Positions 6,291-39,300 of a stretch of 64,000 bases of DNA are shown here, piece after piece; the first letter of the stretch is position 1; each line of letters begins with the position of its first letter. The stretch is taken from positions 1,362,163 through 1,426,162 of the forward strand of contig OZ243040.1 of assembly GCA_965211995.1 (NCBI GenBank). The letters run 5' to 3'. The notes beneath the pieces were generated by a model. It did not search any database and had not been told where the DNA came from. It worked only from the letters and a program-made list of their open reading frames with translations. A program made the position numbers and the translations under genes. This stretch comes from Candidatus Oxydemutatoraceae bacterium. Lineage in GTDB: Bacteria; Pseudomonadota; Gammaproteobacteria; Poriferisulfidales; Oxydemutatoraceae.

Positions 6291-6968
6291 GTGCGCCCCC
6301 CGCGCCCGGCAGCGTGCGCAACCCGGATCATTGCGGCGTGCAAACGCGCCGCACTTCGTCGAAGGTCGCCTCGACGCTGACGACGTTGCCCTGAGACCGA
6401 CTGATCGCGGTGTCGGGATCCTTCAATCCGTGGCCGGCCGGCGTGCACGCTGCGCGCGCCCCCCGCGCCCGGCAGCGTGCGCAACCCGGATCATTGCGGC
6501 GTGCAAACGCGCCGCACTTCGTCGAAGGTCGCCTCGACGCTGACGACGTTGCCCTGAGACTGACTGATCGCGGTGTCGGGATCCTTCAATCCGTGGCCGG
6601 TCGGCGTGCACACTGCGCGCCCCCCCCGCGCCCCCCCCGCGCCCGGCAGCGTGCGCAACCCGGATCATTGCGGCGTGCAAACGCGCCGCACTTCGTCGAA
6701 GGTCGCCTCGACGCTGACGACGCTGCCCTGAGACTGACTGATCGCGGTGTCGGGATCCTTCAATCCGTGGCCGGCCGGCGTGCACGCTGCGCGCGCCCCC
6801 CGCGCCCGGCAGCGTGCGCAACCCGGATCATTGCGGCGTGCAAACGCGCCGCACTTCGTCGAGGGTCGCCTCGACGCTGACGACGTTGCCCTGAGACTGA
6901 CTGATCGCGGTGTCGGGATCCTTCAACCCGTGGCCGGTCAGCGTGCACGCTACGCGCGCGCCCCGCGG
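6291..6968. repeat. 4-copy tandem array (periods 163/174/163 bp) of the thrC 3' end plus ~30 bp of downstream DNA
   Basis: cgcgcccggcagcgtgcgcaacccggatca starts at 6301, 6464, 6638 and 6801. The last copy contains the real thrC stop (6828-6830). Copies differ by substitutions and one 11-bp insertion. Confidence 0.95.
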
Positions 6969-7952
6969 GATGCGGCCGGCGCGGGCGTCCTTGATCAGGC
7001 CGGCGATCGAGATCGCCGACGCCGGCTCGCAGAACACCCCCTCGCACGACGCCAGCGTCTTCTGCGCCGCGAGGATCTCGGCGTCGCTACATTCGTCGAA
7101 CCAGCCGCCGGATTCGCGCACCGCCGCTTCGGCTTGCTGCCAACTTTGCGGATTGCCGATGCGGATCGCGGTTGCGACGGTTTCGGGGTTGTCAACTTTG
7201 TGCCCGCGCAGGATCGGCGCGGCGCCGCTCGCCTGATAGCCGACCATCTTCGGGCGAGTCGCAGTGAACGCGGCGCCGGCGCGAAAAGCATCACCGAGCA
7301 AGTCGCGCGCGTGCGCCATGCACTCGCTGTCCTCGCCGGCGGCTTCGCAGTAACCCATCCAGTAGGCGCTGATGTTGCCGGCGTTGCCGACCGGAATGCA
7401 GTGGTAGTCGGGCGGCGCCCCCAGCGTTTCAACGATCTCGAAAGCGGCGGTCTTCTGCCCCTGCAAGCGGTACGGGTTGATCGAGTTGACGATCGCCATG
7501 CCCGCTTCTTCCGCCACTTCTTTGACCAACTGCATGCCCTGATCGAAGTTGCCCTTGATCTGGATGATGGAAGCCCCCTCGATCATCGCCTGCGCGAGTT
7601 TGCCCAGCGCGATCTTGCCCGCGGGGATGAGCACGAAAGCGGCAAGCCCCGCGCGCGCGGCATACGCGGCGGCCGACGCCGAAGTGTTGCCGGTGGACGC
7701 GCAGATGACGGCGCGCTTGCCCGCGTGCAACGCCTGGGTAACCGCCACCGTCATGCCGCGGTCCTTGAACGAGCCGGTCGGGTTAAGTCCCTCGTACTTG
7801 ACGAAGATCTCGAGTTCGACGCCGGCCTTGGCGGGCAGGTTATGCAGGCGGATCAAAGGCGTCGAGCCCTCGTCGAGGCTCACGACGCGCGCGTCGGGCG
7901 GCAGCGGCAGACGTTCGCGGTAACGCGCGATCAGGCCGGCGGGTGCGCTCAA
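6828..7952 (-). CDS. thrC: threonine synthase
   Basis: EGLNPTGSFKDRGM (PLP lysine), CASTGNTSAS, TGHGLKDPD. Confidence 0.97.
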   Translation of the reverse strand: MSAPAGLIARYRERLPLPPDARVVSLDEGSTPLIRLHNLPAKAGVELEIFVKYEGLNPTGSFKDRGMTVAVTQALHAGKRAVICASTGNTSASAAAYAARAGLAAFVLIPAGKIALGKLAQAMIEGASIIQIKGNFDQGMQLVKEVAEEAGMAIVNSINPYRLQGQKTAAFEIVETLGAPPDYHCIPVGNAGNISAYWMGYCEAAGEDSECMAHARDLLGDAFRAGAAFTATRPKMVGYQASGAAPILRGHKVDNPETVATAIRIGNPQSWQQAEAAVRESGGWFDECSDAEILAAQKTLASCEGVFCEPASAISIAGLIKDARAGRIPRGARVACTLTGHGLKDPDTAISQSQGNVVSVEATLDEVRRVCTPQ

Positions 7953-9359: not shown

Positions 9360-10544
9360 TCACCTTGCCTCCTGAAACATGCGCTTGATGTTGCGCAACG
9401 CCTGCCTGATGCGGTGCTCGTTCTCGATCAGGCTGAACCGCACGTAACCCTCGCCGTGGCGGCCAAAACCGGCGCCCGGCGACACCGCGACCTGGGCGCG
9501 GTTCAGCAGGTGCTTGGAAAACTCGAGCGAGCCCGCGTCGCGGTAAGGCGCGGGCACCGGCGCCCACGCGAACATCGTCGCCCGCGGCTTCTCGATCGCC
9601 CAGCCGAGTTTATTGAGTCCCTCGCACAACACGTCGCGCCTTTTGCGGTAGGTTTCCCTGGTCTCCTCGACGCAGTCCTGCGGCCCTTCGAGCGCCGCGA
9701 TCGCCGCGACCTGGATCGGCGTGAACAGACCGTAGTCCAGATAAGACTTGATCTTTTCGAGTGCCGCAACCAACTCGCGACAACCGCACATAAAACCGAC
9801 CCGCCAACCGGGCATATTATAGGTCTTGGATAGAGAATAAAACTCGACCGCGAGTTCCGCGGCGCCCGGCACTTGCAGGATCGAAGGCGGACGGTAGCCG
9901 TCGAACGAAATCTCGGCGTAGGCAACGTCGTGAATCACCCACAAGCGGTGCTCGCGCGCGAGTTCCACAACTTTCTCGAAAAACGGCAGTTCCACGCAGC
10001 GCGCGGTCGGGTTGCTCGGAAAGTTCAAGATCAACAACTTCGGCTTCGGCCAGGCGTCGTGGATCAGTTTCTGCAGTTCGTCAAAAAAATCCGGTTCCGA
10101 CAGCAGCGGCACGTACAGCACGTCGGCGCCCGCGATCACGCAACTGTAGGGATGGATCGGATAGGCCGGCGCCGGCACCAGCGCACAGTCTCCCGGCTTC
10201 AGCATCGCCAGCATCAGGTGCGCGATGCCTTCTTTCGAGCCGATCGTGACGATCGCCTGCTCTTCGGGGTCGAGTTCGACGCCGAACCTGCGCCGGTACC
10301 AGTCGCACACCGCACCGCGCAGGCGCGGGATCCCGCGCGAGGACGAATAGCGGTGGGTGTCGTCCCGCTGCGCGACTTCGACCAGTTTGGCGACGACGTG
10401 CGCGGGCGTCGGGCGGTCGGGGTTGCCCATGCCGAAATCAACGATATCGTCGCCGCGCGCCCGGGCTTCGGCCTTCAGCCGGTTGACGATCGAGAACACG
10501 TACGGCGGGAGCCGCTCGATCCTTTCAAATTGCCCGGTGTTCAT
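9360..10544 (-). CDS. alaC: AlaC-like class I/II aminotransferase (glutamate-pyruvate aminotransferase)
   Basis: [38 protein letters not shown]. Start moved to ATG 10544. Typical alaC-hom-thrC order. Confidence 0.88.
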
Positions 10545-11116
10545 GCCAGGTACAGCGCCAACGCCAGCAGCACCAGCGCGGCGAGCGCGAGCCAGCCGTA
10601 CACCTCGATGCGCCGCTCGATCACCGGCAGTACTCTCGGCCCCGCCCACTTCAGCAGCAACGCGACCAGAAAAAAGCGCGCGCCGCGCCCGGCCAGCGAC
10701 GCGACGACGAACACCGCGAGATTTTGCCCGAGCGCGCCGGCGCCGAGCGTGAAAACCTTGTAGGGGATCGGGCTGAAGCCCGCGATGAAGACGACCGCCG
10801 CGCCCCATTCGTCGAACCACGCCGCCGCCGTCTCGTAGCGTTCCCAAAACGCGCCGCCCTCGAGCCACGGCGTGATCAGATCGAACGCGAAATACCCGAG
10901 CGCGTAACCCGCGACGCCGCCGCCGACCGAAAACAAAGTCGTCATCGCCGCGAGATACATCGCACGCTGCGGGCGCACCGCGCACATCGGCGCGAGCAGC
11001 ACGTCGGGCGGCACCGGGAAGAAAGACGACTCGGCGAAACTCAACGCGAACAGGTACTTGTCGGCGGCGGCACGCGACGACCAGGATTTCACCGTGTGAT
11101 ACAAAGGTGCGAACAA
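10541..11116 (-). CDS. yqaA: YqaA/DedA-family membrane protein
   Basis: [23 protein letters not shown]; usual neighbour of surE-pcm. Confidence 0.85.
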
Positions 11117-11120
11117 TGAC

Positions 11121-12020
11121 TTACGGCAACACGGCTAACTTGCTGTTCATCAACGCCGGGGCATACTTCGGCTTGTGCATGGGTCTCGTGCGCAACGTGC
11201 CCGCGAAAGCGCGCCGTATTCTGCTTCCGGATACGTCAACGTATTGTTCTTCCGTCTCCGCGCCTGCGCCGCGTCTGCCGTGACGAATGGCCGCAATAAT
11301 GGAACTGCCGGCTCCCAAAAACGGATCGAGCACCCAGTCGTCCCGGTTTGTCAGCGACAGCACCAGCCGCTCGACCAACTCCACCGGATACTGGCAGGGA
11401 TGCTCCGTTTTCTCCACGTGATTGCTTTTGACGTTGGGAACGTCCCAAACGTCCCCGGGATTTTTCCCCAGCGGATTACACGAATATTGTCCCGCCTTTG
11501 GTCCTTTGAAATACTTTTTGGCCGGGTACTTTTGCGGAACTCTAACGGGATCGAGGTTAAAAACATAATCCTTTGCCTTTCTAGTGAACCAGATGATCGT
11601 TTCGTGGCGCCCGGAAAATCTTTTTGAACAATGCAGCCCGTGTTCAAAGTACCAGATTATCCGATTTCTCATCACCAGCCCCAGATCGGAAAATACCGGA
11701 TACAGGGCGGCGTCAAGAGGAACAATAGCCCCGTCATCCACGTAATTCCCGACTTGCCAGCAGATGCTGCCGGTATCGGAAAGAACACGGACACACTCTT
11801 TTATCACCCCCGCCTGGCTTTCGAGGTATTGATTGAGGCCGGTTTTCTTCTCATATTCCTTGCCGATATTGTAAGGGGGCGACGTAACGATCAATTGGAT
11901 GGAACGATCCGGTATTTGTTCCAACAGGGCCAGGCAATCCCCGTGATAGACGACAACGCGCTCGTTCAATTTGAACGTGCCGGCTATTTCTGCTTTCGGG
12001 GCGGGCATAATCCGTTGCAT
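11121..12020 (-). CDS. Site-specific DNA amino-methyltransferase (beta class, SPPY motif, probably N4-cytosine), apparently orphan
   Basis: TSPPYNIGKEYE catalytic motif precedes HPCQYP and DPFLGAGS (SAM-binding); lower GC. Confidence 0.9.
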   Translation of the reverse strand: MQRIMPAPKAEIAGTFKLNERVVVYHGDCLALLEQIPDRSIQLIVTSPPYNIGKEYEKKTGLNQYLESQAGVIKECVRVLSDTGSICWQVGNYVDDGAIVPLDAALYPVFSDLGLVMRNRIIWYFEHGLHCSKRFSGRHETIIWFTRKAKDYVFNLDPVRVPQKYPAKKYFKGPKAGQYSCNPLGKNPGDVWDVPNVKSNHVEKTEHPCQYPVELVERLVLSLTNRDDWVLDPFLGAGSSIIAAIRHGRRGAGAETEEQYVDVSGSRIRRAFAGTLRTRPMHKPKYAPALMNSKLAVLP

Positions 12021-12154
12021 TATATGTCATATAACGGGACGGCCGCCGCCTGCGGCCGGCCGGCCTTAAAAAGAAACCAGCACCGCCGCTGCAATGCCGA
12101 CAAGCGCCAACGGTACGCCGGAAACCTCTTTCCCCGCGCGGGCGCAATACGAAG

Positions 12155-12880
12155 TTATCCGTCAAAAGAGTAGTTGAACCGCTCTATTTCCCACCGGGAA
12201 ATTTCCGCGACTTTATCGCGCAACTCGTCGTCGTAATATTCGCGGAAATGAGACCTTGAAGCGGATGTACTGATTTTTAAGGACTCTCCCAATTCCGGAA
12301 AACCGATCCGTTCGCCTACGTGCGCGAGATCCTCCCGCCGATTTTCATATCTTGCGACAAAGTCCACCAGCAGGTTGTTTTCTTCGTCGCACAGCAGTTT
12401 ATTCGCCGGAAGCCATGACTGCGCGCGTGAGCGGTATTTTGCGAACAGGACACTCTTAAAAGGCGCTCTCATCTGAGAGGGGGAAAGGGGCATTCCACAA
12501 TGAAAAATGTAAAGTGATACATATCTTTCCCACGGATTCCTGATGACGCTAAAAGTGAACCGCCTTTGCCAAAGTTCGTGTCCCGGCAGTTTCCGCATCT
12601 CCAATGCCGTTAAATGATCGGGCAAGCGGAAAATCCGCCCGCCGGCAAAGCGAGTTGCAAGCGATTTTTTCGTTGCCTCGCCGATGAAGTCAATCCGCCG
12701 GTCTTTACCATAAGGCCAGCCAAACCGGGCATCGAGTTCCGTTTTAAGAGAGGTGGAGGAAGTACGCGCAATATCAACGTACCAAAAGCCCGTCCCGGCG
12801 ACTTTACGCCGAACCAAAGGAAGAACCGGTTTCCCGAATATTTGCCTGAATGTCTTGCGGAGACTCATGCGATACGACAA
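12155..12880 (-). CDS. Sulfotransferase family 2-like protein
   Basis: IARTSSTSL (5'-PSB-like loop), RNPWERYVSLY (3'-PB-like), VDFVARYEN, YYDDEL...EIERFNYSF; low GC. Confidence 0.75.
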   Translation of the reverse strand: MSYRMSLRKTFRQIFGKPVLPLVRRKVAGTGFWYVDIARTSSTSLKTELDARFGWPYGKDRRIDFIGEATKKSLATRFAGGRIFRLPDHLTALEMRKLPGHELWQRRFTFSVIRNPWERYVSLYIFHCGMPLSPSQMRAPFKSVLFAKYRSRAQSWLPANKLLCDEENNLLVDFVARYENRREDLAHVGERIGFPELGESLKISTSASRSHFREYYDDELRDKVAEISRWEIERFNYSFDG

Positions 12881-12960
12881 TGATTTTTATTAAGACTGCC
12901 CGCAGATGCAACGCCATTACCCCATAGCCGTCAAACAAGGGGAAACAACAACCCCTTCAC

Positions 12961-13596
12961 TCAACCGACCAGCGGCACGAACTTAACCCCGAAGTGGCGC
13001 TCTTTCTTGTAGCCGTGCTCGTTGCGCCTGACCAGCATCAGGTGCTGGTCCTCTTCACCGACGGGCACGACCATGCGGCCGCCGACGGCGAGTTGGTCGA
13101 GCAGCGCGGGCGGCGCTTCTTTTGAAGCCGCGGTGACGATGACGCCGCCGTACGGCGCGAATTGCGTCCAGCCCTTGCCGCCGTCGGCGCAACGGAAATT
13201 CACGTTGCGGCAGTCGAGTTCCGTCAACAGTGCGCGTGCGGCGCTGTGCAATGCGCCGATGCGCTCGATCGTGAACACGCGGGGAACGAGCAGCGACAGC
13301 ACCGCCGTCTGATAACCCGAACCGGTGCCGACCTCGAGCACGACTTCGGGCACGCCATTGGCGATCAGCAGTTGGGTCATAAACGCGACGATGTACGGCT
13401 GCGACACGGTTTGATCGTGGCCGATCGGCAGCGCCTGATCGGCGTAAGCGAGATTGGCGAAACCCGGATCAACGAAACGGTGCCGCGGCACGCGCCCGAC
13501 CGCATCGAGCACCCGGCGGTCGGCGATGCCTTTGAATTCGAGTTCGGAGACGAGCCGCTCACACGCGTACTGGAATCGGTGTTCCGTCTCGCGCAT
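12961..13596 (-). CDS. pcm: protein-L-isoaspartate O-methyltransferase
   Basis: QTVSQPYIVA, VLEVGTGSGYQ, FVPLV. Confidence 0.96.
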   Translation of the reverse strand: MRETEHRFQYACERLVSELEFKGIADRRVLDAVGRVPRHRFVDPGFANLAYADQALPIGHDQTVSQPYIVAFMTQLLIANGVPEVVLEVGTGSGYQTAVLSLLVPRVFTIERIGALHSAARALLTELDCRNVNFRCADGGKGWTQFAPYGGVIVTAASKEAPPALLDQLAVGGRMVVPVGEEDQHLMLVRRNEHGYKKERHFGVKFVPLVG

Positions 13597-13602
13597 CGCC
13601 GC

Positions 13603-14358
13603 TCAGCGCAAACTTCCGAGCCAGTCGCCGACGGTTTCGAGGTGGCGGTGGCGGGTCAGGTCAACGTGCAAAGGCGTCACCGAAACGTAACCGGCGGCGA
13701 CCGCGTGAAAGTCGGTGCCGGACCCCGCGTCCTGCTCGGGACCGGGCGCGCCGATCCAGTAGATCGGTTCGCCGCGGGGGTCGCTGTCCTCGATCGCCGG
13801 CTCGGCGACGTGGCGGTTGCCGAGCCGGGTGCTTTTGAAGCCCTTGACGTCGTGCAACGGCACGTCGGGCACGTTGACGTTAAGGATGATCTCACGCGGC
13901 AGCGCCGCGTTTTTCAAATGCCCGATCAGCCGCCTGGTGACTTTGGCGGCGGTGTCGAGATGGCGCGGGCGCAGCGAAACGATCGACACCGCGACCGCGG
14001 GGAATCCCAGATAGCGCCCCTCCATCGCCGCCGCGACGGTGCCCGAATACACCACGTCGTCGCCCAGATTTTCGCCGTGGTTGACGCCCGACAACACCAT
14101 GTCGGGCGGCGCGTCCTTGAACAGGCCGGTCACGCCGAGGTGCACGCAATCGGTCGGCGTGCCGTTCACCGCGTATATGTTTTCGGATATGCGGGTGATG
14201 CGCAGGGGGCGGTCGAGTGTCAGCGAATTGCTCGCGGCGCTGCGGTCCTGGTCCGGCGCGACCACCGACACTTTGTCGGACGCGGCGAACGACGACGCGA
14301 GGATCCTGAGCCCCGGACTGTCGTAGCCGTCGTCATTGCTGATCAATATGTGCATCAA
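13603..14358 (-). CDS. surE: 5'/3'-nucleotidase SurE
   Basis: ILISNDDG, GTPTDCV, SGVNHGENLGDDVVYSGTV. Confidence 0.97.
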   Translation of the reverse strand: MMHILISNDDGYDSPGLRILASSFAASDKVSVVAPDQDRSAASNSLTLDRPLRITRISENIYAVNGTPTDCVHLGVTGLFKDAPPDMVLSGVNHGENLGDDVVYSGTVAAAMEGRYLGFPAVAVSIVSLRPRHLDTAAKVTRRLIGHLKNAALPREIILNVNVPDVPLHDVKGFKSTRLGNRHVAEPAIEDSDPRGEPIYWIGAPGPEQDAGSGTDFHAVAAGYVSVTPLHVDLTRHRHLETVGDWLGSLR

Positions 14359-19181: not shown

Positions 19182-20012
19182 CTAACCTCGGCGGTCGGTT
19201 CGCATATTCAAAAAACGCATAACGCGCCGGACGCTGTCTTGCGCCGCCACCGCATTGTACTTAACGCGGTGCCCGAAATAACTCAAGTCCAATCCGGGCA
19301 CGTCGAAACTGTGGTGCGCGCCGGGGTACACCACCAGTTCGTAAACGTGCCCGGCGCGGTCGCCGATGCGCATGTCGCGGCAGCGGGCGGCGGGCGTCCA
19401 GTCGTCGCGGTCGCCGATCAGCACCAGCAAGTCGGCGTTCAGCACGGGCAGCACGTCGTAGCAGTAGGGATAAAAAGCGATCACGCCCTTGAGCCGGGAA
19501 AACGGCGAAGCGGCGTGCAACTGCGTGAGCAGCGCCGCGGTCGCGCCGTGCGACGCGCCGGCCAGGAACACGCCGTCGCGGTCGAAACGCCCGTCGCGCA
19601 TGACCCAGTGCAACGCGGCCGCGGCGTCCATGCTGCGCGTCATCGGCGAGACGCGGAACACGTCGCCGCAAACGTTGGCGACGCCGCGCGGCGTCAGGCT
19701 GTCCACCTGCAATACCGCGAAACCCGCGCCGGTCAGTTGCGGCAGCCATACGCGGTTGCGCGCTTCCCAGATGCCGCCGCAGCCGTGCAAGTCAATTACG
19801 ATCGGATGAGGCCCCGCGCCCGCGGGCAGATAGAGGTCGCCGCGCACCGGCGCGGAAGCCCCCGCGAACGCGACTTTGTCGGGCGTCGGCAAGACGGCGC
19901 ACCCCCCCGCATACAAAACGAGAAAGCAAACCAGGCACGCGGCGGGCGAGCCTAAGGCAACGTGCGGGCGGCGCGCCGGACTCAAGTCTGAAGTGCGGCG
20001 TTGACCCGTCAT
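19182..20012 (-). CDS. Dienelactone hydrolase-family alpha/beta hydrolase, probably exported; start uncertain (ATG 20012 or TTG 19985)
   Basis: LHGCGG, GASHGA nucleophile elbow, GDRDDWTP, YPGAHHSFD; hydrophobic N-terminal segment ending AGGC. Confidence 0.8.
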   Translation of the reverse strand: MTGQRRTSDLSPARRPHVALGSPAACLVCFLVLYAGGCAVLPTPDKVAFAGASAPVRGDLYLPAGAGPHPIVIDLHGCGGIWEARNRVWLPQLTGAGFAVLQVDSLTPRGVANVCGDVFRVSPMTRSMDAAAALHWVMRDGRFDRDGVFLAGASHGATAALLTQLHAASPFSRLKGVIAFYPYCYDVLPVLNADLLVLIGDRDDWTPAARCRDMRIGDRAGHVYELVVYPGAHHSFDVPGLDLSYFGHRVKYNAVAAQDSVRRVMRFLNMRTDRRG

Positions 20013-20434
20013 CCTCCGGTGCCTGCCCGCGCTGTCTTTTGCAGGCCCCCTCACCGCCCGGGCGGCGGCGTCCGGCCGACTTCCTCTCGAGGGTGGAGCG
20101 ACTTTCAACGGCCCGCTCCGCTTCCTTTGATCGCACTGGCGTTGACCCGTCATCCTCCGGTGCCTGCCCGCGCTGTCTTTTGCAGGCCCCCTCACCGCCC
20201 GGGCGGCGGCGTCCGGCCGACTTCCTCTCGAAGACGGAGCGACTTTCAGCAGCCCGCTCCGCTTCCTTTGATCGCACTGGCGTTGACCCGTCATCCTCCG
20301 GTGCCTGCCCGCGCTGTCTTTTGCAGACCCCCTCACCGCCCGGGCGGCGGCGTCCGGCCGACTTCCTCTCGAGGGCGGAGCGACTTTCAGCAGCCCGCTC
20401 CGCTTCCTTTGATCGCACTTCAGGCTGGAAGTTG
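19975..20434. repeat. MITE-like element copy 2 with its internal 141-bp segment triplicated
   Basis: ttgacccgtcatcctccgg at 20001, 20142 and 20283; ends caagtctgaagtgcg ... cgcacttcaggctggaag. Confidence 0.9.
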
Positions 20435-23656: not shown

Positions 23657-23705
23657 GCTCACACCGCGCCCGTGCCGACGCGGGCGAGAAAAAAATCCGG
23701 AGAAC

Positions 23706-25094
23706 TTACAGGCGGTCGTAGATGTAAAAGCCGCCGAAATAGGTGCCGAACGCCGATCCGATGCTGCTCAGAAAAAACACCAGCAAAGTCCGCGCGACGC
23801 GGTTGTGCCGCCACCCCGACCAGTGCATCGTGTCCTTGCGGAGGTTCTTGAAATCGGCGACCGTAGGCTGTCTCATATACACTTCGGCGGCGGCGGTGAC
23901 CATGCCGGCGCCGACAGTCGGGTTGATCGAGGTCAGCGGCGCGGCCAGAAACGCGGTGAGGATGGTCAGCGGATGTCCGCCGGCGAGCAACGCGCCGAGC
24001 GAGGAAAGACCGCCGTTGATCAAGATCCACGCGAACACCAACTCAAGCCCGAGCGCGGTGTTGTGCCTGAAACCCGCGGCGAAGCCGGCGAGGATCACGC
24101 CGACTACGATCCACGGGACAAACTTGATCCATTTTGAACCCGCCGGCGTCTTGTTGAGTTCCGTAGCCTCGCCGCGCGGGTCGTCTATTTTTCCCCTGAG
24201 ATAATCCAGCAGCACGTCGGCGAGTCCGCGCACGTGTCCCATGCCGACCACCACCAACATCCGCGCCGGTTTCTGACGGCATATATGAGAGATGATGCAC
24301 GCCCCCATGTAGCGGTCGCGCTCGGTGATCAATGCCTTATACAGGCGCGGGTCGAGTGCCTGCAATTCCTGGAACATGCCGGTGAGCACGTCGCCCTGCT
24401 GCATCTCCTCGGCGTGGACTTCGCTGAGCCTGCGGCGGCTGAACAAACTGACCAGCAATCCGCTGAGCAGCATCATGCGCCGCCACCACGGCACGCTGCG
24501 GTAAACCCGCTTGAGCGTCACCCCGATATCGCGGTCTATCAACTCCAACTTGATGCCACGCTCGTGCGAAGTGTGCACCGCTTCCTTCATCTCGCCGCCG
24601 AGTTCGACGCCGAGATGGTCGGCGAGGCGCTCCTGATAGGCGCTGAGCGCGACCAGCGCGGTCATCGCGCCGAGTTTGCGTTCGCGGATGGCCTTCCCGA
24701 GATCAATCCGCGTGATCGCGTCGGGATCAACGATTGCCTTATGCCGGCTCTCGCACAGTTCGACCGCGACCATGTCGTAGTCGTCGCCCGCGAGCAATTC
24801 CGCGACGTGTTCGCGGCTCAACCGCGATATATGCACGGTGCCGAGAATGTCAACGCGGGTTTTGCCGATGTTCAGCGTCGGCAATTGGTCGGCCAATTTC
24901 TCGGGCGGCTGCCCGGCTTGTTCGTCGGCTACTTTCTCGGGCGGCTGCCCGGCTTGTTCGTCGGCCACTTTCTCGGGCGGCTGCCCGGCTTGTTCGTCGG
25001 CCACTTTCTCGGGCGGCTGCCCGGCTTGTTCGTCGGCCAATTTCTCGGGCGGCTGCCCGGTTTGTTCGTCGGCCACTTTGTCTTCGGTGCTCAT
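23706..25094 (-). CDS. TraB/GumN-family (pheromone shutdown-like) membrane protein with an N-terminal 12-aa repeat
   Basis: LGTVHIS, VAVELC, IDRDIGVTLKR, ERDRYM, VVGMGH, APLTSINP. Start at ATG 25094. Confidence 0.88.
   Translation of the reverse strand: MSTEDKVADEQTGQPPEKLADEQAGQPPEKVADEQAGQPPEKVADEQAGQPPEKVADEQAGQPPEKLADQLPTLNIGKTRVDILGTVHISRLSREHVAELLAGDDYDMVAVELCESRHKAIVDPDAITRIDLGKAIRERKLGAMTALVALSAYQERLADHLGVELGGEMKEAVHTSHERGIKLELIDRDIGVTLKRVYRSVPWWRRMMLLSGLLVSLFSRRRLSEVHAEEMQQGDVLTGMFQELQALDPRLYKALITERDRYMGACIISHICRQKPARMLVVVGMGHVRGLADVLLDYLRGKIDDPRGEATELNKTPAGSKWIKFVPWIVVGVILAGFAAGFRHNTALGLELVFAWILINGGLSSLGALLAGGHPLTILTAFLAAPLTSINPTVGAGMVTAAAEVYMRQPTVADFKNLRKDTMHWSGWRHNRVARTLLVFFLSSIGSAFGTYFGGFYIYDRL
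24888..25079. repeat. In-frame 36-bp tandem repeat, ~5.3 copies, K(V/L)ADEQ(A/T)GQPPE
   Basis: tttctcgggcggctgcccggcttgttcgtcggcca repeated; visible in the translation. Confidence 0.95.
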
Positions 25095-26245: not shown

Positions 26246-26486
26246 AACCGCTTGAATGAGACGCATGAATACCGCCGCGACCTATCCCAAAGACGACATC
26301 ACCTGCGCGATCCTTGCGGGCGGCAAAGGCTCGCGCATGGGCAACCGCAACAAGGGACTGGTCGAACCGCTTGAATGAGACGCATGAATACCGCCGCGAC
26401 CTATCCCAAAGACGACATCACCTGCGCGATCCTTGCGGGCGGCAAAGGCTCGCGCATGGGCAACCGCGACAAGGGACTGATCGAAC
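26246..26486. repeat. 119-bp tandem duplication of the mobA 5' end
   Basis: aaccgcttgaatgagacgcatg at 26246 and 26365; two substitutions between copies. Confidence 0.95.
26256..26378 (+). pseudogene. 40-aa duplicated MobA N-terminal fragment (upstream mini-ORF)
   Basis: MRRMNTAATYPKDDITCAILAGGKGSRMGNRNKGLVEPLE*; its TGA overlaps the mobA ATG. Confidence 0.6.
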
Positions 26487-26995
26487 TGACGGGGCGCCCG
26501 ATGATCGAGCACGTGCTCGAGCGCGTCACGCCCCAGGTCAGCGGCGTCGTAATCAGCGCCAACCGCCATCTCGAGGAATACCGCCGCTACCACCGCCCGG
26601 TAATCGCCGACGCGGCGGACGACTTCCGCGGACCGCTCGCGGGGATTGCGGCGGCGCTGCGCCATTGCGACACGCGATGGACGCTGAGCGTGCCGTGCGA
26701 CAGCCCGCTGCTGCCGCTCGACCTCGCCGCGCGCCTGTACCGTGCGCTTGCGACGCAAGGCGCGGACGTCGCGGTCGCCGACGACGGGGAACGCCTGCAT
26801 CCGGTGTTCTGCCTGATAGCGCGGCATCTCACCGGCGACCTCGAGGACTTTCTCGCGGGCGGCGAGCGCAAAATTGACCGTTGGTTCAAGCGGGTCGGCA
26901 CCGCGCGCGCCGACTTCAGCGACGAGCCCGAATGTTTCGGCAACGTCAACACCGCGGGCGAGTTGGCCCGGGTCGAGCAAGCATTGGCGCAATGA
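26375..26995 (+). CDS. mobA: molybdenum cofactor guanylyltransferase
   Basis: ILAGGKGSRMG..DKGL, GPLAGI, VPCDSP, NVNT. Confidence 0.96.
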   Translation: MRRMNTAATYPKDDITCAILAGGKGSRMGNRDKGLIELTGRPMIEHVLERVTPQVSGVVISANRHLEEYRRYHRPVIADAADDFRGPLAGIAAALRHCDTRWTLSVPCDSPLLPLDLAARLYRALATQGADVAVADDGERLHPVFCLIARHLTGDLEDFLAGGERKIDRWFKRVGTARADFSDEPECFGNVNTAGELARVEQALAQ

Positions 26996-27175
26996 TGAAC
27001 CGGCGCTCTTCCATACACCCCCCGGTCCTCGGTTTCTGCGCGTACAGCGGCACCGGCAACGTCAACACCGCGGGCGAGTTGGCCCGGGTCGAGCAAGCAT
27101 TGGCGCAATGATGAACCGGCGCTCTTCCATACGCCCCCCGATCCTCGGTTTCTGCGCGTACAGCGGCACCGGCAA
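26938..27175. repeat. 116-bp tandem duplication spanning the mobA/mobB junction
   Basis: cggcaacgtcaacaccgcgg at 26938 and 27054; CGGCAA microhomology; two substitutions. Confidence 0.95.
26992..27111 (+). pseudogene. 39-aa chimeric mini-ORF (MobB N-terminus fused in frame to MobA C-terminus)
   Basis: MMNRRSSIHPPVLGFCAYSGTG|NVNTAGELARVEQALAQ*; ATGA overlaps at both ends. Confidence 0.6.
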
Positions 27176-27656
27176 GACCACGCTGCTGACCTCGCTGCTG
27201 CCGCTGCTCAAAGCGCAGGGCGTCAAGGTCGGCATGGTCAAGCACGCGCACCACAAGTTCGACACCGACCGTCCCGGCAAGGACAGTTATGAATTGCGCA
27301 AAGCGGGCGCGCAGCAGATGCTGGTGTCGTCGAGCAAGCGCTGGGCGCTGGTCACCGAATTGCTTGAGGGCGAGGACGAAGCAAATCTCGATGAGCTGAT
27401 CGCGCACCTCGATCACGCCGCTCTCGACCTGATCCTGGTCGAGGGTTTCAAGCGCGAAGCGTTCCCGAAAATCGAACTGCACCGTCCCGAACTCGGCAAG
27501 CCGACGCTGTACCGCCACGACCGAAACATCATCGCCTTCGCAACCAACGGCGCGCCGCCCGCCGGCATTTCGATCCCGGTACTGGATCTCGGCGCACCCG
27601 CGAAAATTCGCAACTTCATCACCGACTTCATCAACGTCAAAACGGCGGACGCATAA
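27108..27656 (+). CDS. mobB: molybdopterin-guanine dinucleotide biosynthesis protein B
   Basis: AYSGTGKTTLL Walker A, KHAHH, DRPGKDS, LVEGFK. Confidence 0.96.
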   Translation: MMNRRSSIRPPILGFCAYSGTGKTTLLTSLLPLLKAQGVKVGMVKHAHHKFDTDRPGKDSYELRKAGAQQMLVSSSKRWALVTELLEGEDEANLDELIAHLDHAALDLILVEGFKREAFPKIELHRPELGKPTLYRHDRNIIAFATNGAPPAGISIPVLDLGAPAKIRNFITDFINVKTADA

Positions 27657-31015: not shown

Positions 31016-31078
31016 TCTTATATTATAGAGACTAATGCAAGACTAATGCGGTCCCCGACCGTGCGCCACGCTACCGAG

Positions 31079-31744
31079 ATGAAAAAAACAATCCCGCCCG
31101 TATGCCTGCTGCTGGCATTGACCGCCTGCTCGAACGTCGCCACGCAGATCAAGGGCCTCGGCAAATTGGACGTGGATCTGGTCAGCGACATTCATATCCT
31201 GGTGCTCAGAAACCACCTCCACGAAATGGCCCTGAAACTTTACGACAGGAATCCGGATGAACTCGGTAAAACACCGGGGTTGTCGCTCGAAGCACGCCTC
31301 GCGCAGATCCTCGATCACCCGACCGACGTCTCGTACCGGGAACTCGACTACAAGCACAGCGTGCCCGCGATCGAGTTGGCTCTTGACCACGACTACCGCG
31401 GCGACCGCGTGTTTGCGCTGCTGCTCGGCATCAACAGCATGCTGAAATTCTCGTATAACGATCTCAACGAATTGTTCATGTTCAACGAACTCGACCCGCA
31501 AAAACTTTATGACAGCGCCAGAAACCTCGAGAAGATCGCATCGCGGCTGCGCCTCGAAACCCGCCGCGGAAAACCGCTGATCAACTTGGGGCCGATGCAC
31601 GGTCGAGGCGCGTTTGAAGACACCATCGCCCGTATGGCCGGCGTCCAGGACGTGATGGCCGAGATCATCGCCGCCAAAACGCAGCGCATCGTCAACAAAA
31701 CGGTGCAAAGCGCCACGACCCTCCTTATCCCGGTCAAACTCTAG
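31079..31744 (+). CDS. Hypothetical lipoprotein
   Basis: MKK-hydrophobic-LTAC lipobox. Confidence 0.75.
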   Translation: MKKTIPPVCLLLALTACSNVATQIKGLGKLDVDLVSDIHILVLRNHLHEMALKLYDRNPDELGKTPGLSLEARLAQILDHPTDVSYRELDYKHSVPAIELALDHDYRGDRVFALLLGINSMLKFSYNDLNELFMFNELDPQKLYDSARNLEKIASRLRLETRRGKPLINLGPMHGRGAFEDTIARMAGVQDVMAEIIAAKTQRIVNKTVQSATTLLIPVKL

Positions 31745-31910
31745 CGCCGCGCCGACGGAACTTGGGGCCGATGCACGGTCGAGGCGTGTTTGAAAACACC
31801 ATCGCCCGCATGACCCGGCGGCCGGGACGTAATGGCCGGGATCATCGCCGCCAAAACGCAGCGCATCGTCAACAAAACGGTGCCGCACCCCTCCTTATCC
31901 CGCTCAGGCT
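31583..31910. repeat. 176-bp-period duplication of the lipoprotein gene 3' end; downstream copy degenerate
   Basis: aacttggggccgatgcacggtcgagg at 31583 and 31759; downstream copy has substitutions and indels. Confidence 0.9.
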
Positions 31911-31938
31911 TTGGGAGCGGGCCGGGCGGCAAAGATCT

Positions 31939-33306
31939 TCAGGAGGCGGACAGCCCGGCGAGTGCCGCGCCGCCCATGTTCTTGATCACTTCTTCACCGA
32001 AGCCCGAGGTCGTCACGAGGGTGGCGCCCGGCATCAGGCGCTGAAGGTCGGCGGCGACGTCGTCGCGGCTGCCGAGCCTGCGCACGCCGGCGGCGAGGCC
32101 GCCCCTGACGCGCGCGAGGTCGTAAGTGACGGTCTTCGCGGCGATCGCGCCGGCGACGCCGCCGAGAACGAGATCGGCGGCTTCGTTCCAACCCATGTAG
32201 CGCAGCATCATCTCAGCGGACAGGATGATCGAGCCGGGATTGACGCGGTTTTTGCCGGCGTATTTCGGCGCGCTGCCGTGGGTCGCTTCAAACACCGCGA
32301 CCGTGTCCGACATATTCGCACCCGGCGCGATGCCGATGCCGCCGACCTGCGCGGCCAGTGCGTCGGAAATGTAGTCGCCGTTGAGATTAAGCGTTGCGAT
32401 AACGTCGTACTCGTCGGGCTTGAGCAGAATCTGCTGCAGAAAATTGTCGGCGATCACGTCCTTGACGACGATATCCCCGCCGCTCACGGGGTTTTTGAAC
32501 TTGCGCCACGGGCCGTCGCCGATGACCTCGGCGCCGAACTCCTCGGTCACCAATTCGTAGCCCCAGTTGCGGAAAGCGCCTTCGGTGAACTTCATGATGT
32601 TGCCCTTGTGCACCAGCGACACCGAACTGCGGTCATTGTCTATCGCGTAGCGCACCGCCATTCTGATCAGCCGCTGCGAGCCTTCCTGAGAGACCGGCTT
32701 GATGCCGATGCCCGAAGAGCCGGGAAAGCGGATGCCTTCGACTTTCATCGTATCCTGCAAAAACGAGATAACCTTGCGCACGTCGTCGGACTGGGCCGGC
32801 CACTCGATGCCGGCGTAGATGTCTTCGGTGTTCTCGCGGAACACCACCATATCGGTGGCGGACGACTGCTTCATCGGCGTCGGCGTGCCCGGAAAATAGC
32901 GGATCGGCCTGATGCAGGCGTAGAGGTCGAGCCGCTGGCGGATTGCGACGTTGAGCGAGCGGATGCCTTCGCCGACCGGCGTCGTCAGCGGCCCCTTGAT
33001 CGAAACCGCGTAGTTGCACATCGCGTCGAAAGTCTCCTGCGGCAACCACTGGTCGGGGCCGTAGATCCCGGCCGCTTTTTCGCCGGCGTAGATCTCCATC
33101 CACACAATCCCGCGGCGGTCGGCGTAAGCCGAGGCGACCGCGGCGTCCACCACCTGCCGCATCACCGGCGTGACGTCAACGCCGATGCCGTCGCCTTCGA
33201 TGAACGGAATAACCGGGTGGTCGGGCACCGACAGCGAGCCGTCGGCGCGGTGCGTGATCGCGCCGCCCCGCTGCGGAACCTTTATATGTTGATACGCCAC
33301 CACCAC
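31939..33306 (-). CDS. icd: NADP-dependent isocitrate dehydrogenase (E. coli type)
   Basis: [43 protein letters not shown]. Confidence 0.97.
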
Positions 33307-34605: not shown

Positions 34606-35014
34606 TTTTTCGATGCCTCCGTGTTTATAAGGCGCTTCCCCCGAAACCGGCGACCGAAACGTGAGCGTAAGCCTCGGTGCGGAAGCGCGAACTGAAGCCA
34701 GAAAGGGTTCAAAAAACAATTTTATATGATAGCAGTTTCCACCCGCGGCATGGCGCCCGCGTTCAGCACATTCGTCTCCGTACGCTCGTTGTCCGGCGCG
34801 TGCGCGTCCGCGTCCCGGCACGTTCCCGGGGAAGCGGTTTTCAACGGCCTGCGGCGGCGGGCCGACTTCCTTTGCGTTGGTATTTCTCTCCCCGCCGGTC
34901 GGGTTGCGCCTGGGATTGCTCCCCTCTCAGGGGGCGCAGTTGACCTTTCCCCCGAAAAGGTAGCCATTTTCAGAGAGACTTTTCCGATAAAATCGACCAT
35001 AAGGAGGTCTCATA

Positions 35015-35281
35015 ATGAAAGGCAAGCGATACAGCACAGAGAAAATCATAGGCATACTCAAGGAGTATGAAGCTGGCATACCGGTGCAGGATGTCGTCCG
35101 CAAGCATGGTATCGCCAACGGCACGTTTTATCGGTGGAAATCGAAGTACGGCGGCATGGAGGTGTCGGAAGCAAAGCGGTTACGGGAACTGGAATCGGAA
35201 AACGCGAAGTTGAAGCGACTGCTGGCGGATACGTTGCTGGACAAGACCGCACTTGAGGACGTACTCGGAAAAAAGTGGTGA
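35015..35281 (+). CDS. IS3-family transposase OrfA
   Basis: HTH (RKHGIANGTFYRWKSKYGG) and LESENAKLKRLLA zipper. Confidence 0.95.
   Translation: MKGKRYSTEKIIGILKEYEAGIPVQDVVRKHGIANGTFYRWKSKYGGMEVSEAKRLRELESENAKLKRLLADTLLDKTALEDVLGKKW
35269..35275 (+). other. -1 programmed frameshift site (A6G)
   Basis: AAAAAAG at the orfA/orfB overlap; orfB is in the -1 frame. Confidence 0.8.
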
Positions 35282-36093
35282 GGCCGACGCAGCGACGCGG
35301 CGCCGTCGTGTATCTGCAGTCGGCCTATCGCATGAGTCAACGCAGGGCGTGCCGGCTGGCGCTGCTCAGCCGCAAAGCGGCTGCTTACCAAGCCGTTGCA
35401 CGCAATGACGGGGCACTAAAAAAGCGGCTCAAGGAACTGGCTGAACGCTACCCGCGATACGGGTATCTGATGCTGCACGCATTGCTCAAGGCCGAGGGCC
35501 TGGTGGTCAATCGCAAACGCACCTATCGCCTGTATACAGCGCTCGGTATGCAACTCAGAACCCGGCGGCGTAAGAAACTGGTTCGGCCTCGGGTCCCGAT
35601 GGCTTTACCTGCCCAAGTGAACGAACGTTGGTCATTGGACTTTGTGCACGACCAATTGGCGGATGGCCGGCGTATCCGGGTACTCAACGTTATTGATGAC
35701 TTCTCCCGGAAATGTGTTGGCCAACTGGTTGACACGTCCATCTCCGGCGCTCGTCTGGCTCGGTATCTGGATGAACTCGCCCTGACCCGCTCACTGCCTG
35801 CCTCGCTCGTGCTGGACAATGGCCCGGAACTGACCAGCAAAGCTATGTTCTTCTGGGCACACAAAACCAAAGTAAAACTCTGCTTCATTCAGCCGGGGAA
35901 ACCCACTCAGAATGCTTATGTTGAGAGCTTCAACGGACGCTTCCGTGACGGCTGCCTGAATCAACATTGGTTTAGGTCGCTCAATGATGCCAGGCAGATC
36001 ATTAACGACTGGCGACATCACTACAACAATGTACGACCGCACAGCTCACTAGGCTATCGGGCACCAACCGTGTTCGAAGCAGAGGCTGCATGA
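35275..36093 (+). CDS. IS3-family transposase OrfB (DDE)
   Basis: WSLDF, DNGPE, PGKPTQNAYVESFNG. Confidence 0.95.
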   Translation: MVRPTQRRGAVVYLQSAYRMSQRRACRLALLSRKAAAYQAVARNDGALKKRLKELAERYPRYGYLMLHALLKAEGLVVNRKRTYRLYTALGMQLRTRRRKKLVRPRVPMALPAQVNERWSLDFVHDQLADGRRIRVLNVIDDFSRKCVGQLVDTSISGARLARYLDELALTRSLPASLVLDNGPELTSKAMFFWAHKTKVKLCFIQPGKPTQNAYVESFNGRFRDGCLNQHWFRSLNDARQIINDWRHHYNNVRPHSSLGYRAPTVFEAEAA

Positions 36094-36393
36094 TATGATG
36101 TTTTTGTCTCTCTTTGAATGGCTACCCAACAGGGGAAAGGTCACAGTCAGGGAGCAAGAGAAGTCGTTGCCGGTCGCCGGCGGCGGGCTGACTTCCTTTG
36201 CGTTGGTATTTCTCTCCCCACCGGTCGGGTTGCGCCTGGGATTGCTCCCCTCTCAGGGGCGCAGTCAGGGAGAAGCCGTTGTCGGTCGCCGGCGGCGGGC
36301 CGACTTCCTTTGCGTTGGTATTTCTCTCTCCGCCGGCCGGGTTGCGCCTGGGATTGCTCCCCTCTCAGGGGCGCAGTCAGGGAGAAGTCGTTG

Positions 36394-39300
36394 TCAGTCG
36401 CGGGCGGTCGCCGGCCGCGGCGTGCGCCGCCGCCGACCGTAAGGGAGCGCGCCGAGGAGCAGCAGGAGCAGCCATACCGGATCCATGGCACCGCCACCAC
36501 CGCCACTGGTCGGATCCGGATCCGGATCCGGCGTCTCCTCATCCTCGGTGAACACGACCAATGCAACCGGGTCGTGAATAACGCCGTTCGCCGTCAGATC
36601 GGCGTCGTTTACCTGGACGTCGTTTACACCGCCGTCCTGGATCTGCAGCAACAGACATTCGTCGCCCGTGCGCACGCCGGCGGTTGCCGCCAAATACCAC
36701 GCGTGAGCGTCCCGGTTGAAAGCCTCGTCGTCGGGCTGCCGCGATGCACTGATCGCAGGACACGGCTTCGGTGCGCTGTACACCCTGTCGGTATTCGTTT
36801 GAATAAACTCACTCCATTCCAGACCGGCGGCGGTGGTGTCGCGGAATTTGTGCACCAACCAAGTCTGGCCCGTGATCACCGTCGCCGGCGCGAGCAGCGG
36901 TATCACTACGGTGACTACGTCGCCGTCCTCCATGCCGCTGACGGCGTAATCAAATACGCCGGTCGCCGTGTTCAGCGTCCCGATCAGGTCTCCTCTGTTC
37001 GGCACCTCCTGATTGATGCCGAGCGTGCCGAGCGCGGCGCTACGCAGCGCCGCCGAGAAATCTTCACTGCTGTCCGCACCCGCACCTTGCACCCGCGCGG
37101 CGGCCTGAGCGTAGCCGCCCAGGGCCAGGGTCAAATCGGACTGGATCGGCGGGCCGGACATCCGCAGCGCCATCTGCTGCGCCATCTGCTGCGCCTCATC
37201 CGGGTCCGGGTCGCGTGCCTCACCGTTCCTGTATGCCTGCAACAGGCGTCTGTTGACTTCATTTTCATCGGCGTGGTCGTCCGGCACGCCATCGTTATCG
37301 CCGTCGACTTCATCCGTCACGACGATGACCCTGAATTCGCCTTCGACCGTTGCCCCCGGCGTGGATACCGCCCTGACCTCGATGGTCTCACCGGCGATGC
37401 CGTCAATGGCCGCGGCGACGTCGCGCAAATTGACAGGCGATGATGCAGCCGCCATCGCCAGATCCCCAATATCTATCGGCGGGGAGAATCTATTGGGGCC
37501 GGCGGCATCAGTGCCGTATTTTCTGACACTGATCGTAAATTCGGCCGCTCCCGTGACATTGAATATCGGGAAAGCAGTCGCTACGTCGGCGACGTTCAGA
37601 GGCAGACTCGTCGGCTGACTTGCCGTCTGATCCGTGAAGAAGTTGAACTCTGCCTCGTCCGGGCGGCCATATACCGACACCATCACGGCGGCGTTGCCCA
37701 GCGCAAACAATCGCTGCCCCGTGAGATCGCCGGCCGTTAAACCTCCTATCTCGTTCGTGTTGCTCGCGCCGGAGAATATGAAGTCGTTCACGCTCTCTAT
37801 AACCACTGCCCCCGTTGAATCTGCTGCGGGCAGCGAGACGCCCACCGCCTGCAACGAACCTCTTTGAGGGTGGTCCTCATTGAATCCGGCGGGGGCAACA
37901 TCCTCTGCGTCTCCATCTCCCACCGTTATGGAGAAAGTGCTTACCTCGACAGGAGCGCCCATATCGTCCAATGAAGCGGCAACCGAGATTGGCAGATCAA
38001 CGTTCTGCGTCCCCGTCTCCCGCACGACCAGTGCCTCGACGTCAAATCCCACCGGCGGTGCGACATAGATGTACCTGATCGCCCTGACCCTGACGTCGGG
38101 GTCGGGGTCGGAACTGAACCCTTCCCACAGCACCCGGGTGGTGAATGAGTTGATGGACGTCGGCCGCAGATCCAACGGCGAACATCCAACGGCTGCCGAG
38201 TCGCCTTCGATAATCGCCATTGCACAGGCGGGCGTGTACTCGTAGGCAATCAGATTGTCGCCGCACTCTGCACACGTCGCCACAGCCGGATTTATCCGGG
38301 TCATCGCGGCTTTTCCGGGGACCAGGATGTAGGGCGACGGCACGCCATCCCCCACCGCACCTGGTGCGAGATTCTCCCCATTGATGCTGATCGCCACCGA
38401 CGACGACACCATCACACCTACTGTGTCAACAGCGGACAAGGGGGTCGTGGAATGCATGTCGGTCACGGTCAACTGGAACGTCAGGTCCGTGTTCATCGCC
38501 ACATTGGGCGCCGTGAACATGGGCTGCGCGGCCGTGGGGTCATCCAGCGCCACGACGGGTGTGCCAATCTGCTCCCACTCGAAACTCAGCGGCTGACCCT
38601 CCGGATCTCTTGAGCGGCTGCCGTCCAGTATCACGGTCGCGCCTTGAGCCACCATGTCATCGCTGACATCAGCCAGGGCCGTTGGCGTGTCGTTCACCGC
38701 GATCACGGTGACCATCACCGTGTCGTTGTCGGACGAATTCCGTGCGTCGCTCACCGTCAACTGGAACATCAATTCTGCGTCCTCGACCAGCAGATCGGGC
38801 GCTATGAACGTAGTCTGCGCGGCCGTGGGGTCATCCAGATCCACGGTGGGCGTGCCATCCGTCTGCGTCCATGCGTAACTCAGCGTCTCGCCCTCCGGAT
38901 CAGCGCCGCTGCCTTCCAGCGTCACCATATCTCCCTCGCCCACGATCAGATCGTCGCCCGCGTCCACTGTCGGCGCGTCGTTCGCCCCGGCGACCACGGT
39001 GATGTCTATCGTGGCAACGCCGGTCAAGCCCGGAGTCCCTCCGTCGGTCACCGTCAACTGGAACGTCAATACCACATCCATAACCAGTTGAGGGGGCGCC
39101 GTGAACATGGGCTGCGCGGCCGTGGGGTTATCCAGCGCCACGGTTGTGCCGTCCGTCTGTGTCCATGCGTAACTCAGCGCGCCCTCCGGATCGCTTGAGC
39201 CGCTGCCGTCCAGCGTCACGGGCGTGCCTTCATTCACACTTGCCGGCGCATTGATCACCGCCGTCGGCGCATCGTTCTCCCCGGTGATCGTGATGGTCAC

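Follow-up and report, generated by a model that had tools for sequence, protein, structure and literature searches.

Why does one bacterial chromosome hold six short tandem duplications within about 30 kb, concentrated at the ends of genes? The question is raised by a 64,000-nucleotide stretch of Candidatus Oxydemutatoraceae bacterium (GCA_965211995.1, contig OZ243040.1, positions 1,362,163 to 1,426,162; hereafter the window), which comes from a single closed contig of 1,943,614 bp with 61.6% GC (genome G000 below). A preliminary description, made from the letters of the window, had proposed that the duplications arise by an ongoing, lineage-wide process with a characteristic tract length, filtered by selection to gene ends. 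We found that the six duplications are real and that they belong to a population of arrays spread over the whole genome of this one species. They are probably ordinary slippage-type local duplications, tolerated under weak selection, and the earlier proposal was borne out in part.

Tandem Repeats Finder (TRF) recovered five of the six duplications and a repeat search found the sixth, of 176 bp, in agreement with the number first reported. The gene assignments of thrC, mobA and mobB were also borne out by NCBIfam matches, each gene being intact over the full profile. The duplications, with the genes and other elements directly concerned, are as follows.

6293..6967, no strand: tandem array of a 163-bp unit in 4.1 copies (TRF, 93% matches; alternative reading 337 bp in 2.0 copies, 97%)
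6828..7952, minus strand: thrC (threonine synthase), intact (TIGR00260, 310 bits, profile 1-340 of 340)
19997..20419, no strand: tandem array of a 141-bp unit in 3.0 copies (TRF, 97%), within a copy of a dispersed family resembling miniature inverted-repeat transposable elements (MITE-like family)
26246..26486, no strand: tandem duplication of 119 bp in 2.0 copies over the mobA start (TRF, 98%, 2 differences)
26375..26995, plus strand: mobA, intact (TIGR02665, 237 bits, profile 1-185 of 186)
26938..27175, no strand: tandem duplication of 116 bp in 2.1 copies, from the mobA end to the mobB start (TRF, 98%)
27108..27656, plus strand: mobB, intact (TIGR00176 and PRK10751 matches)
31046-31744, plus strand: open reading frame (ORF) of 232 aa whose 3′ end is duplicated (no NCBIfam or Pfam match)
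31583..31924, no strand: decayed duplication of ~176 bp in two copies (repeat search; missed by TRF)
34828..34940, no strand: third copy of the 112-bp unit, detached (89-97% identical to 36158-36377)
34941..36143, plus strand: insertion sequence (IS) element of the IS3 family inside the 112-bp array (NF033516 matches)
36158..36407, no strand: tandem array of a 112-bp unit in 2.2 copies (TRF, 93%)

The six units are mutually unrelated in sequence. The 163-bp unit consists of the terminal 140 nt of thrC, which fall within the array, and the 23 nt past them, and an imperfect, GC-rich direct repeat is present at both of its ends. Downstream of intact thrC lie three decaying extra copies that hold C-terminal ThrC fragments (residues 329-374, 87% identity). 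Because the array reads as two copies of 337 bp at 97% matches and as four copies of 163 bp at 93%, a two-copy array appears to have diverged first and then to have been re-duplicated as a block. In the 119-bp duplication the true mobA start (26375) lies in the second copy and the junction shows 3 nt of microhomology (AAC); the junction of the 116-bp duplication shows 6 nt (CGGCAA), and that of the 141-bp array a microhomology excess of 0. The 141-bp unit alone among the window units matches a dispersed family, with 30 other matches in the genome at ~77% identity. In the decayed duplication, 31583-31754 aligns with 31759-31924 at spacings of 176, 177 and 170 in blocks that are 72-94% identical and contain indels, and the second copy occupies the spacer as far as the 3′ end of icd. 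The last 14 nt of the 112-bp array overlap the stop region of a giant gene (stop at 36394), and the IS3-family element, which recurs across the genome (~10 copies, 92.6-99.5% identity by BLAST), separates the third copy of the unit from the other two. The earlier count of three copies for this unit is right once the detached copy is included. As a chance control, ten first-order Markov simulations of 36.5 kb yielded 0 arrays of period at least 50 bp.

Adjoining the 176-bp duplication is an isocitrate dehydrogenase ORF (31939-33306, 455 aa); the best family profiles stop near residue 403-406, leaving an unmatched C-terminal tail of ~50 residues.

TRF applied to the whole genome returned 342 collapsed loci, 146 of them with a period of at least 50 bp. 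These 146 arrays cover 70.5 kb, or 3.6% of the genome. Arrays occur along the whole length of the chromosome at 0-10 per 100 kb. Genes were called with a home-made, crude combination of ORFs and codon bias that gave 1,577 genes and 83% coding sequence genome-wide. For gene and boundary classes we used the 117 non-coding or gene-end arrays, that is, those with a period of at least 40 bp that do not lie wholly within a called gene, and for counts inside genes against random placement we used the 146. The narrow size class that had been described in the window held for the genome: among the 117 arrays the median period is 146 bp, the interquartile range 105-192 bp and the 5th-95th percentile 59-308 bp, and a TRF rerun with a maximum period of 2000 found only three arrays with a period above 330 bp. 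Copy number is mostly 2-4. Identities run from 67 to 99%, mostly 92-98%, with no array that is 100% identical, and this range agrees with the suggestion that the duplications arose at different times.

Comparison of all 146 units confirmed that they are unrelated to one another: matches between units were confined to giant-gene arrays, paralogous genes and the MITE-like family, and 114 of the 146 match nothing elsewhere in the genome. The dispersed MITE-like family supplied the units of four arrays, the 141-bp one included. Against a genome average of 1.8 arrays per 30 kb, the six in ~30 kb have a Poisson P of 0.011; thus the window is mildly richer than the rest of the genome, no more. One of the three arrays with a period above 330 bp lies directly downstream of mutS (G000:C1:865550-869485) and is made of three tandem paralogous genes of 412-444 aa (1,317 bp in 2.9 copies, 91% matches).

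The period of an array depends on whether it lies inside a gene. All 30 in-gene arrays with a period of at least 50 bp have periods divisible by 3, whereas the non-coding and boundary arrays are distributed 30/34/53 over period modulo 3. Moreover, only 30 arrays lie inside genes, when 74 are expected by random placement. Purifying selection thus removes duplications that break the frame, so that the survivors are intergenic, lie at a gene end with one intact copy left, or are in frame. The selection filter of the preliminary description was in this respect well founded. To derive a neutral expectation for gene boundaries, one unit of each array length was dropped at random and retained unless it fell wholly inside one gene. 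The counts, which are approximate because of the crude gene calls, were as follows.

Purely intergenic: observed 27, expected 43
3′ end only: observed 29, expected 22
3′ and 5′ ends: observed 34, expected 23
5′ end only: observed 19, expected 25
Two 3′ ends: observed 7, expected 2.1
All 3′ ends touched: observed 77, expected 49
All 5′ ends touched: observed 53, expected 50

Geometry and selection together account for most of the concentration at gene boundaries, and to this is added a moderate bias toward 3′ ends. Because the genome is compact, a harmless 150-bp duplication can hardly miss a gene end. The 3′-end preference is most simply read as a difference in harm, duplicated promoters and leaders being costlier than duplicated gene tails.

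The stretch is present in four public runs (X1-X4), which two studies contributed, and we used their assembled Logan contigs. X1 shows 0 differences from the window and is possibly the source sample; its contigs break at every array, as is usual for short-word assembly at near-identical repeats. The strain in X3 and X4, which come from the other study, is ~1.8% diverged (54 differences in 3,070 letters). In each of these two runs one contig joins 27025 to 27142, with 255 letters on either side, and so skips exactly 116 bases. An exact skip of 116 bases means that this strain lacks the mobA/mobB duplication. The youngest class of array, with 98% identity, is thus polymorphic in this species, and an assembly artefact does not explain the duplication. 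A strain difference in unit number could be read at this one locus only. The contigs of X1-X4 break at the 141-, 119-, 176- and 112-bp arrays and at a 36-bp repeat that was absent from the earlier list of duplications, and contig depth over the IS3-family element is very high in all four runs. The 36-bp repeat, its host gene and the genes flanking the 141-bp array are the following.

24888..25079, minus strand: in-frame repeat of 36 bp in 5.3 copies (12 residues per unit), near the 5′ end of the TraB-family gene (TRF)
23706-25094, minus strand: TraB-family gene (TIGR00261)
19182-19916, minus strand: dienelactone-hydrolase-family gene, on one flank of the 141-bp array (Pfam)
20533-21228, plus strand: DnaJ-domain ORF, on the other flank of the 141-bp array (Pfam)

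In X3 the 176-bp array appears as part of the second copy and a joint of 31748 to 31825, which is not readable as an allele. One contig of X2 (depth 19) joins 22370 to 24725 and skips 2,354 bp, which hold the last part of a VWA-domain gene and the bulk of the TraB-family gene. Some of this segment is represented in other contigs of X2, and the skip may be a deletion variant within the population. Elsewhere in the window, positions 10000-14000 have a GC content of 59-60% against ~65% around them and hold a gene for an adenine-specific DNA methyltransferase (11121-12020) together with two ORFs without a family match.

It is extremely improbable that the duplications are artefacts of assembly. 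The short-read contigs of the best-matching run do break at every array, so that they do not confirm copy number. However, the copies differ by 1-30% substitutions rather than by the indels expected from long-read errors, the genome is one closed contig, and the contigs of an independent study hold a collapsed allele whose breakpoints lie exactly one period apart. Nor would artefacts give rise to a rule by which 30 of 30 in-gene arrays are in frame.

We compared array density among relatives using identical TRF settings and the first 400 kb of each genome (genome sizes 1.76-2.22 Mb). G001-G004 belong to the same genus as G000, G007 to the same family and G013 to the same order.

G000 (own genome): 31 arrays of period 50-400 bp, 47 of period <50 bp
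G003 (same genus): 6 arrays of period 50-400 bp, 38 of period <50 bp
G001 (same genus): 5 arrays of period 50-400 bp, 25 of period <50 bp
G007 (same family): 12 arrays of period 50-400 bp (coding and non-coding pooled), 18 of period <50 bp
G013 (same order): 0 arrays of period 50-400 bp, 23 of period <50 bp

In these 400-kb samples the excess of arrays is confined to this species and to periods of 50-400 bp, with a density 5-6-fold that of G001 and G003. The preliminary description had named in advance, as evidence against its proposal, a density and size distribution matching typical GC-rich proteobacteria without enrichment at gene boundaries; the density proved to be unlike that of relatives (31 against 6 and 5 in the genus and 0 in the order). 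Its term 'lineage-wide' fits insofar as the arrays are genome-wide in G000, but not beyond the species, since two genomes of the same genus have 5-6 arrays per 400 kb against 31. Proteins of the same genus are only 62-87% identical, so the branch leading to G000 is long. For ThrC, the nearest matches with a name are from basal Gammaproteobacteria, at no more than 64-69% identity.

The individual loci were in keeping with this. No array was found at the thrC loci orthologous in G001, G003 and G004; the mobA locus is single-copy, with no 119-bp duplication, in G001-G004; and the 116-bp duplication of mobA/mobB is lacking in G001-G003, the G004 locus stopping short of the junction. In relatives with a single-copy locus, mobA and mobB overlap by ~40 bp. 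Judged by these alignments, the thrC and mobA/mobB duplications are the derived state. The mobA matches of G003 (L171) and G004 (L174) each contain one in-frame TGA, which those of G000, G001 and G002 do not.

A function for the arrays, either as recombination donors or as repeated promoters, leaders or terminators that tune the expression of neighbouring genes, had been suggested for the window. Such a role could be read into the excess of 3′ ends touched (77 against 49 under the neutral geometric null) and into the folding of the units, which are slightly more stable than class-matched controls (-0.347 against -0.324 kcal/mol per nt, P = 0.002), although the effect is small and the controls were not matched for GC. 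However, the targets are the housekeeping enzymes ThrC, MobA and MobB, for which there is no reason to expect variable termini, and the additional copies are gene-end fragments that hold stop or start codons plus non-coding flank and are decaying by substitutions and indels. In addition, no sequence is common to the units, an IS element interrupts one array, the related strain in X3/X4 manages without the 116-bp copy, and relatives of the same genus manage without these arrays. We consider a function very unlikely, and both suggested roles lost ground on these data.

How the units were copied can be approached from the junctions of young arrays. Of 17 two-copy arrays that were free of indels and had at least 95% matches, 13 had readable ends. 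Microhomology of 3-7 nt was present in 4 of the 13, including the AAC and CGGCAA junctions of the window, and of 1 nt in two; the other seven had none or fell a few bases short of a full period. As at least 3 nt would be met by chance in ~7% of cases (our own estimate), microhomology is somewhat enriched over chance yet modest, and the earlier statement that junctions often show it was too strong. Divergence of 1-5% blurs the array ends. According to the available part of a report on bacterial strain-level tandem duplications, ~50% have more than 3 bp of microhomology and 25-30% have none (bioRxiv 10.64898/2026.02.28.708716). The available part of a second report describes bacterial tandem duplications as arising de novo, recurring locally and being depleted from coding sequence by purifying selection (PMC13167724).

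These features can be accommodated by a simple mechanism. Arbitrary stretches of 60-300 bp would be copied head to tail by RecA-independent misalignment during replication (slipped-strand or template-switch), a few bases of microhomology being used in some of the events. Once established, arrays would enlarge through misaligned recombination between copies. The large number of arrays in this genome may be due to relaxed retention of slightly harmful extra DNA. The narrow size window may reflect persistence as well as formation; going by work in Escherichia coli, repeats longer than ~300 bp would collapse rapidly by RecA-dependent recombination, and diverged copies would be shielded by intact mismatch repair. 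Two observations suggest relaxed retention. The IS3 family (~10 copies) and the MITE family are present in G000, with none in the 400-kb samples of G003 and G001, and coding density is 86% in G000 (two 400-kb samples) versus 89-91% in relatives (our own caller).

Alternatively, a lineage-specific change in replication or repair could raise the rate at which ~150-bp duplications form, the excess then being mutational rather than a matter of retention. Candidate changes are impaired processing of flaps or Okazaki fragments, weakened single-strand exonucleases and an altered replisome. The restriction of the excess to one size class (50-330 bp) is in favour of such a change, as is the precedent of yeast, in which, according to the available part of the source, loss of Rad27/FEN1 increases tandem duplications 7-10-fold (PMC13167724). 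The preliminary description had called for an inventory of repair genes, and we searched G000 and its relatives with hidden Markov models (HMMs). The HMM scores of recJ, mutS, xseA, mutL, uvrD, recA, dnaQ and rnhA in G000 are on par with those of relatives; polA is full length with its 5′ nuclease domain, a second FEN-like gene is also present, and both score like those of relatives. The intactness of these candidates argues against a change in formation rate. The C-terminal domain of ExoI (PF08411) was not found in G000, which would fit weakened exonucleases, but it was likewise not found in array-poor relatives, and only 1 of 14 control genomes was positive. An addA-like gene has one open frame with an in-frame insertion and a score below those of relatives, and recC was not found in G000 or in the relatives searched.

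RecQ suppresses illegitimate recombination. A full-length recQ is present only in G000 (G000:C1:1665279-1667054, 793 bits, over the cut-off), with a partial match in G001 and G003 and none over the cut-off in G002 and G013, which again speaks against an elevated rate of formation. None of 21 genomes gave a match to Ku (PF02735), and none of the 5 genomes of the genus, G000 included, a match to the ATP-dependent ligase PF01068, so what fill-in duplication of the non-homologous end-joining type calls for was not found. The start region of dnaQ is itself triplicated, a point in favour of altered formation (G000:C1:1199754-1200320, 191 bp in 3.0 copies). Two N-terminal DnaQ fragments (profile 1-35) lie upstream of intact dnaQ, between it and rnhA. 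Taken together, a raised rate of formation is a possible but doubtful account of the excess. Loss of a repair gene as its cause was rejected for the families searched, none of which is lost or visibly degraded only in G000; topB, holC, ssb, ligA, rep, recG, ruvABC, recFOR and sbcCD were not searched.

The thrC locus raises another possibility. In G002, too, a tandem duplication (~305 bp; L004, G002:C6, 870-1634) covers the 3′ end of thrC, and its boundary inside thrC is homologous to within 1 nt to that of G000. Many of the arrays might then be old, pre-dating the split of the species in the genus, and be homogenised by gene conversion or unequal crossing-over in some species and collapsed precisely in others; identity would be no measure of age, and species would differ by loss rather than by gain. 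The nested re-duplication seen in arrays would suit this. However, the downstream boundaries of the two thrC duplications differ, lying 23 nt (G000) and ~162 nt (G002) after the stop, and G001, G003 and G004 have no thrC array. Moreover, the copies in G002 are 100% identical and flank a scaffold gap of 100 N, the two sides of which share a 55-base overlap, so that the structure may partly stem from assembly, and the decay of many arrays to 67-90% identity argues against efficient homogenisation. The positions of other arrays add little: the samples of G003 and G001 contain 11 arrays, five of which could be placed on G000, and two of the five have a G000 array in the same interval. As ~0.9 would be expected by chance over five intervals (our own estimate), two of five is not above chance. 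An old origin of this kind therefore seems quite unlikely.

Returning to slippage-type duplication under weak selection, several observations weigh against it. No cause was found for the 5-6-fold excess over congeners, and the signs of relaxed selection are indirect. The absence of any 100%-identical array fits poorly with a steady process unless identical copies disappear very quickly. Arrays have survived to 10-30% divergence, which needs unusually slow loss in this organism; deletion rates of tandem repeats in E. coli are too high to allow arrays to survive for so long. Microhomology is rarer here than in published events (none in 7 of 13, against 25-30%), and the boundary statistics are approximate. 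Finally, the breakpoint shared by the thrC duplications of G000 and G002 hints at a hotspot or at an old array under concerted evolution, and either would complicate an origin at random followed by filtering.

The preliminary description had also extended the process to the growth of the giant gene next to the 112-bp array, the window part of which is given here.

36394..64000, minus strand: giant cadherin-like/Big_9/PKD-repeat adhesin gene, 3′ part (ORF of 17,375 aa, extending past the window)

By the crude caller the whole ORF spans G000:C1:1398556-1450683. Internally it repeats domains of 315 bp, in frame, and also a block of 5,645 bp, the copies of which are 99% identical. Growth of this gene is thus homology-driven and on a different scale from the ~150-bp arrays, and the proposed extension does not hold. 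A second giant ORF of 9,756 aa (G000 227533-256800) carries a 318-bp repeat in 9.7 copies.

Among known systems, the closest parallels are the 150-bp repeats of Ehrlichia ruminantium and microhomology-mediated tandem duplication (MTD). The original work on plasticity of genome size through tandem repeats in E. ruminantium is reportedly that of Collins et al. 2005 and Frutos et al. 2006. The available parts of two later sources describe a genome that grows and shrinks by adding and removing 150-bp tandem units in non-coding DNA, a process reported as species-specific (PMC10710844, PMC6547736). Going by these parts, two features are alike: the G000 arrays are genome-wide in non-coding DNA, with a unit of ~150 bp in E. 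ruminantium and a median of 146 bp here; and the phenomenon is restricted to one species among its relatives, G000 having 5-6 times the density of its congeners. Copy number varies between strains of E. ruminantium, and in G000 a strain difference is seen at one locus. The organisms differ, in that E. ruminantium is described in the part of the source available as an AT-rich obligate intracellular alphaproteobacterium with ~64% coding sequence (PMC10710844), whereas G000 is a gammaproteobacterium of 61.6% GC and 83-86% coding sequence (crude caller) with 3.6% of its genome in arrays. Moreover, most G000 arrays have only 2-4 copies, and active addition or removal of units is shown at one polymorphic locus only.

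The likeness to MTD lies in a single-copy segment that is duplicated head to tail and may later expand, and, to judge from the accessible parts of the reports, in depletion from coding sequence, polymorphism between strains and local recurrence of breakpoints (PMC13167724; bioRxiv 10.64898/2026.02.28.708716). Both two-copy TRF arrays of the window show microhomology, AAC and CGGCAA. Unlike the events in the available parts of these reports, G000 junctions have microhomology of at least 3 nt in 4 of 13 cases and none in 7 of 13, and units below 50 bp, which make up 38% of de novo events in PMC13167724 as far as it is available, are not enriched in G000. The density of fixed arrays in G000 is also far above that of its own relatives.

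Mycobacterial interspersed repetitive units (MIRUs) and the variable-number tandem repeats (VNTRs) of Wolbachia are dispersed minisatellite families with a common unit family. The G000 arrays resemble such loci as intergenic tandem units of tens to a few hundred bp with strain-variable copy number, but differ in that 114 of 146 units are unique to their own locus and only four arrays derive from the dispersed MITE-like family. They are also unlike silent-cassette systems of gene conversion, since the targets are ThrC, MobA and MobB rather than variable surface genes and the copies include stop or start codons and flank.

The resemblance to E. ruminantium could be taken further. A mechanistically distinct kind of duplication that favours tracts of ~100-200 bp and often dispenses with microhomology might have arisen independently in both organisms; we regard this as unlikely. 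If true, a property of replication or fork repair not yet described and common to both would set the ~150-bp unit, for example a recurrent spacing of replication intermediates or a breakpoint hotspot like that of thrC.

On the account that we favour, slippage-type duplications tolerated under weak selection, the arrays represent a kind of genomic untidiness that is rare but already on record, rather than a genetic device of a new sort. New in this analysis are the 116-bp strain polymorphism, the inventory of repair genes across relatives, the third 112-bp copy split off by an IS element, the test against neutral geometry and the thrC breakpoint held in common with G002. In practical terms, dozens of spurious short ORFs and seeming fragments of genes are to be expected at gene ends when G000 is annotated, and short-read assemblies of this group will break at the arrays. 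For the biology of the group, the arrays offer a clear view of the selection filter, all in-gene survivors being in frame. As far as the available parts of the reports on E. ruminantium go, this is a second, unrelated organism that matches its repeat process in unit size and genome-wide spread, and the array-poor congeners make the cause testable as a higher rate of duplication versus slower loss or weaker selection.

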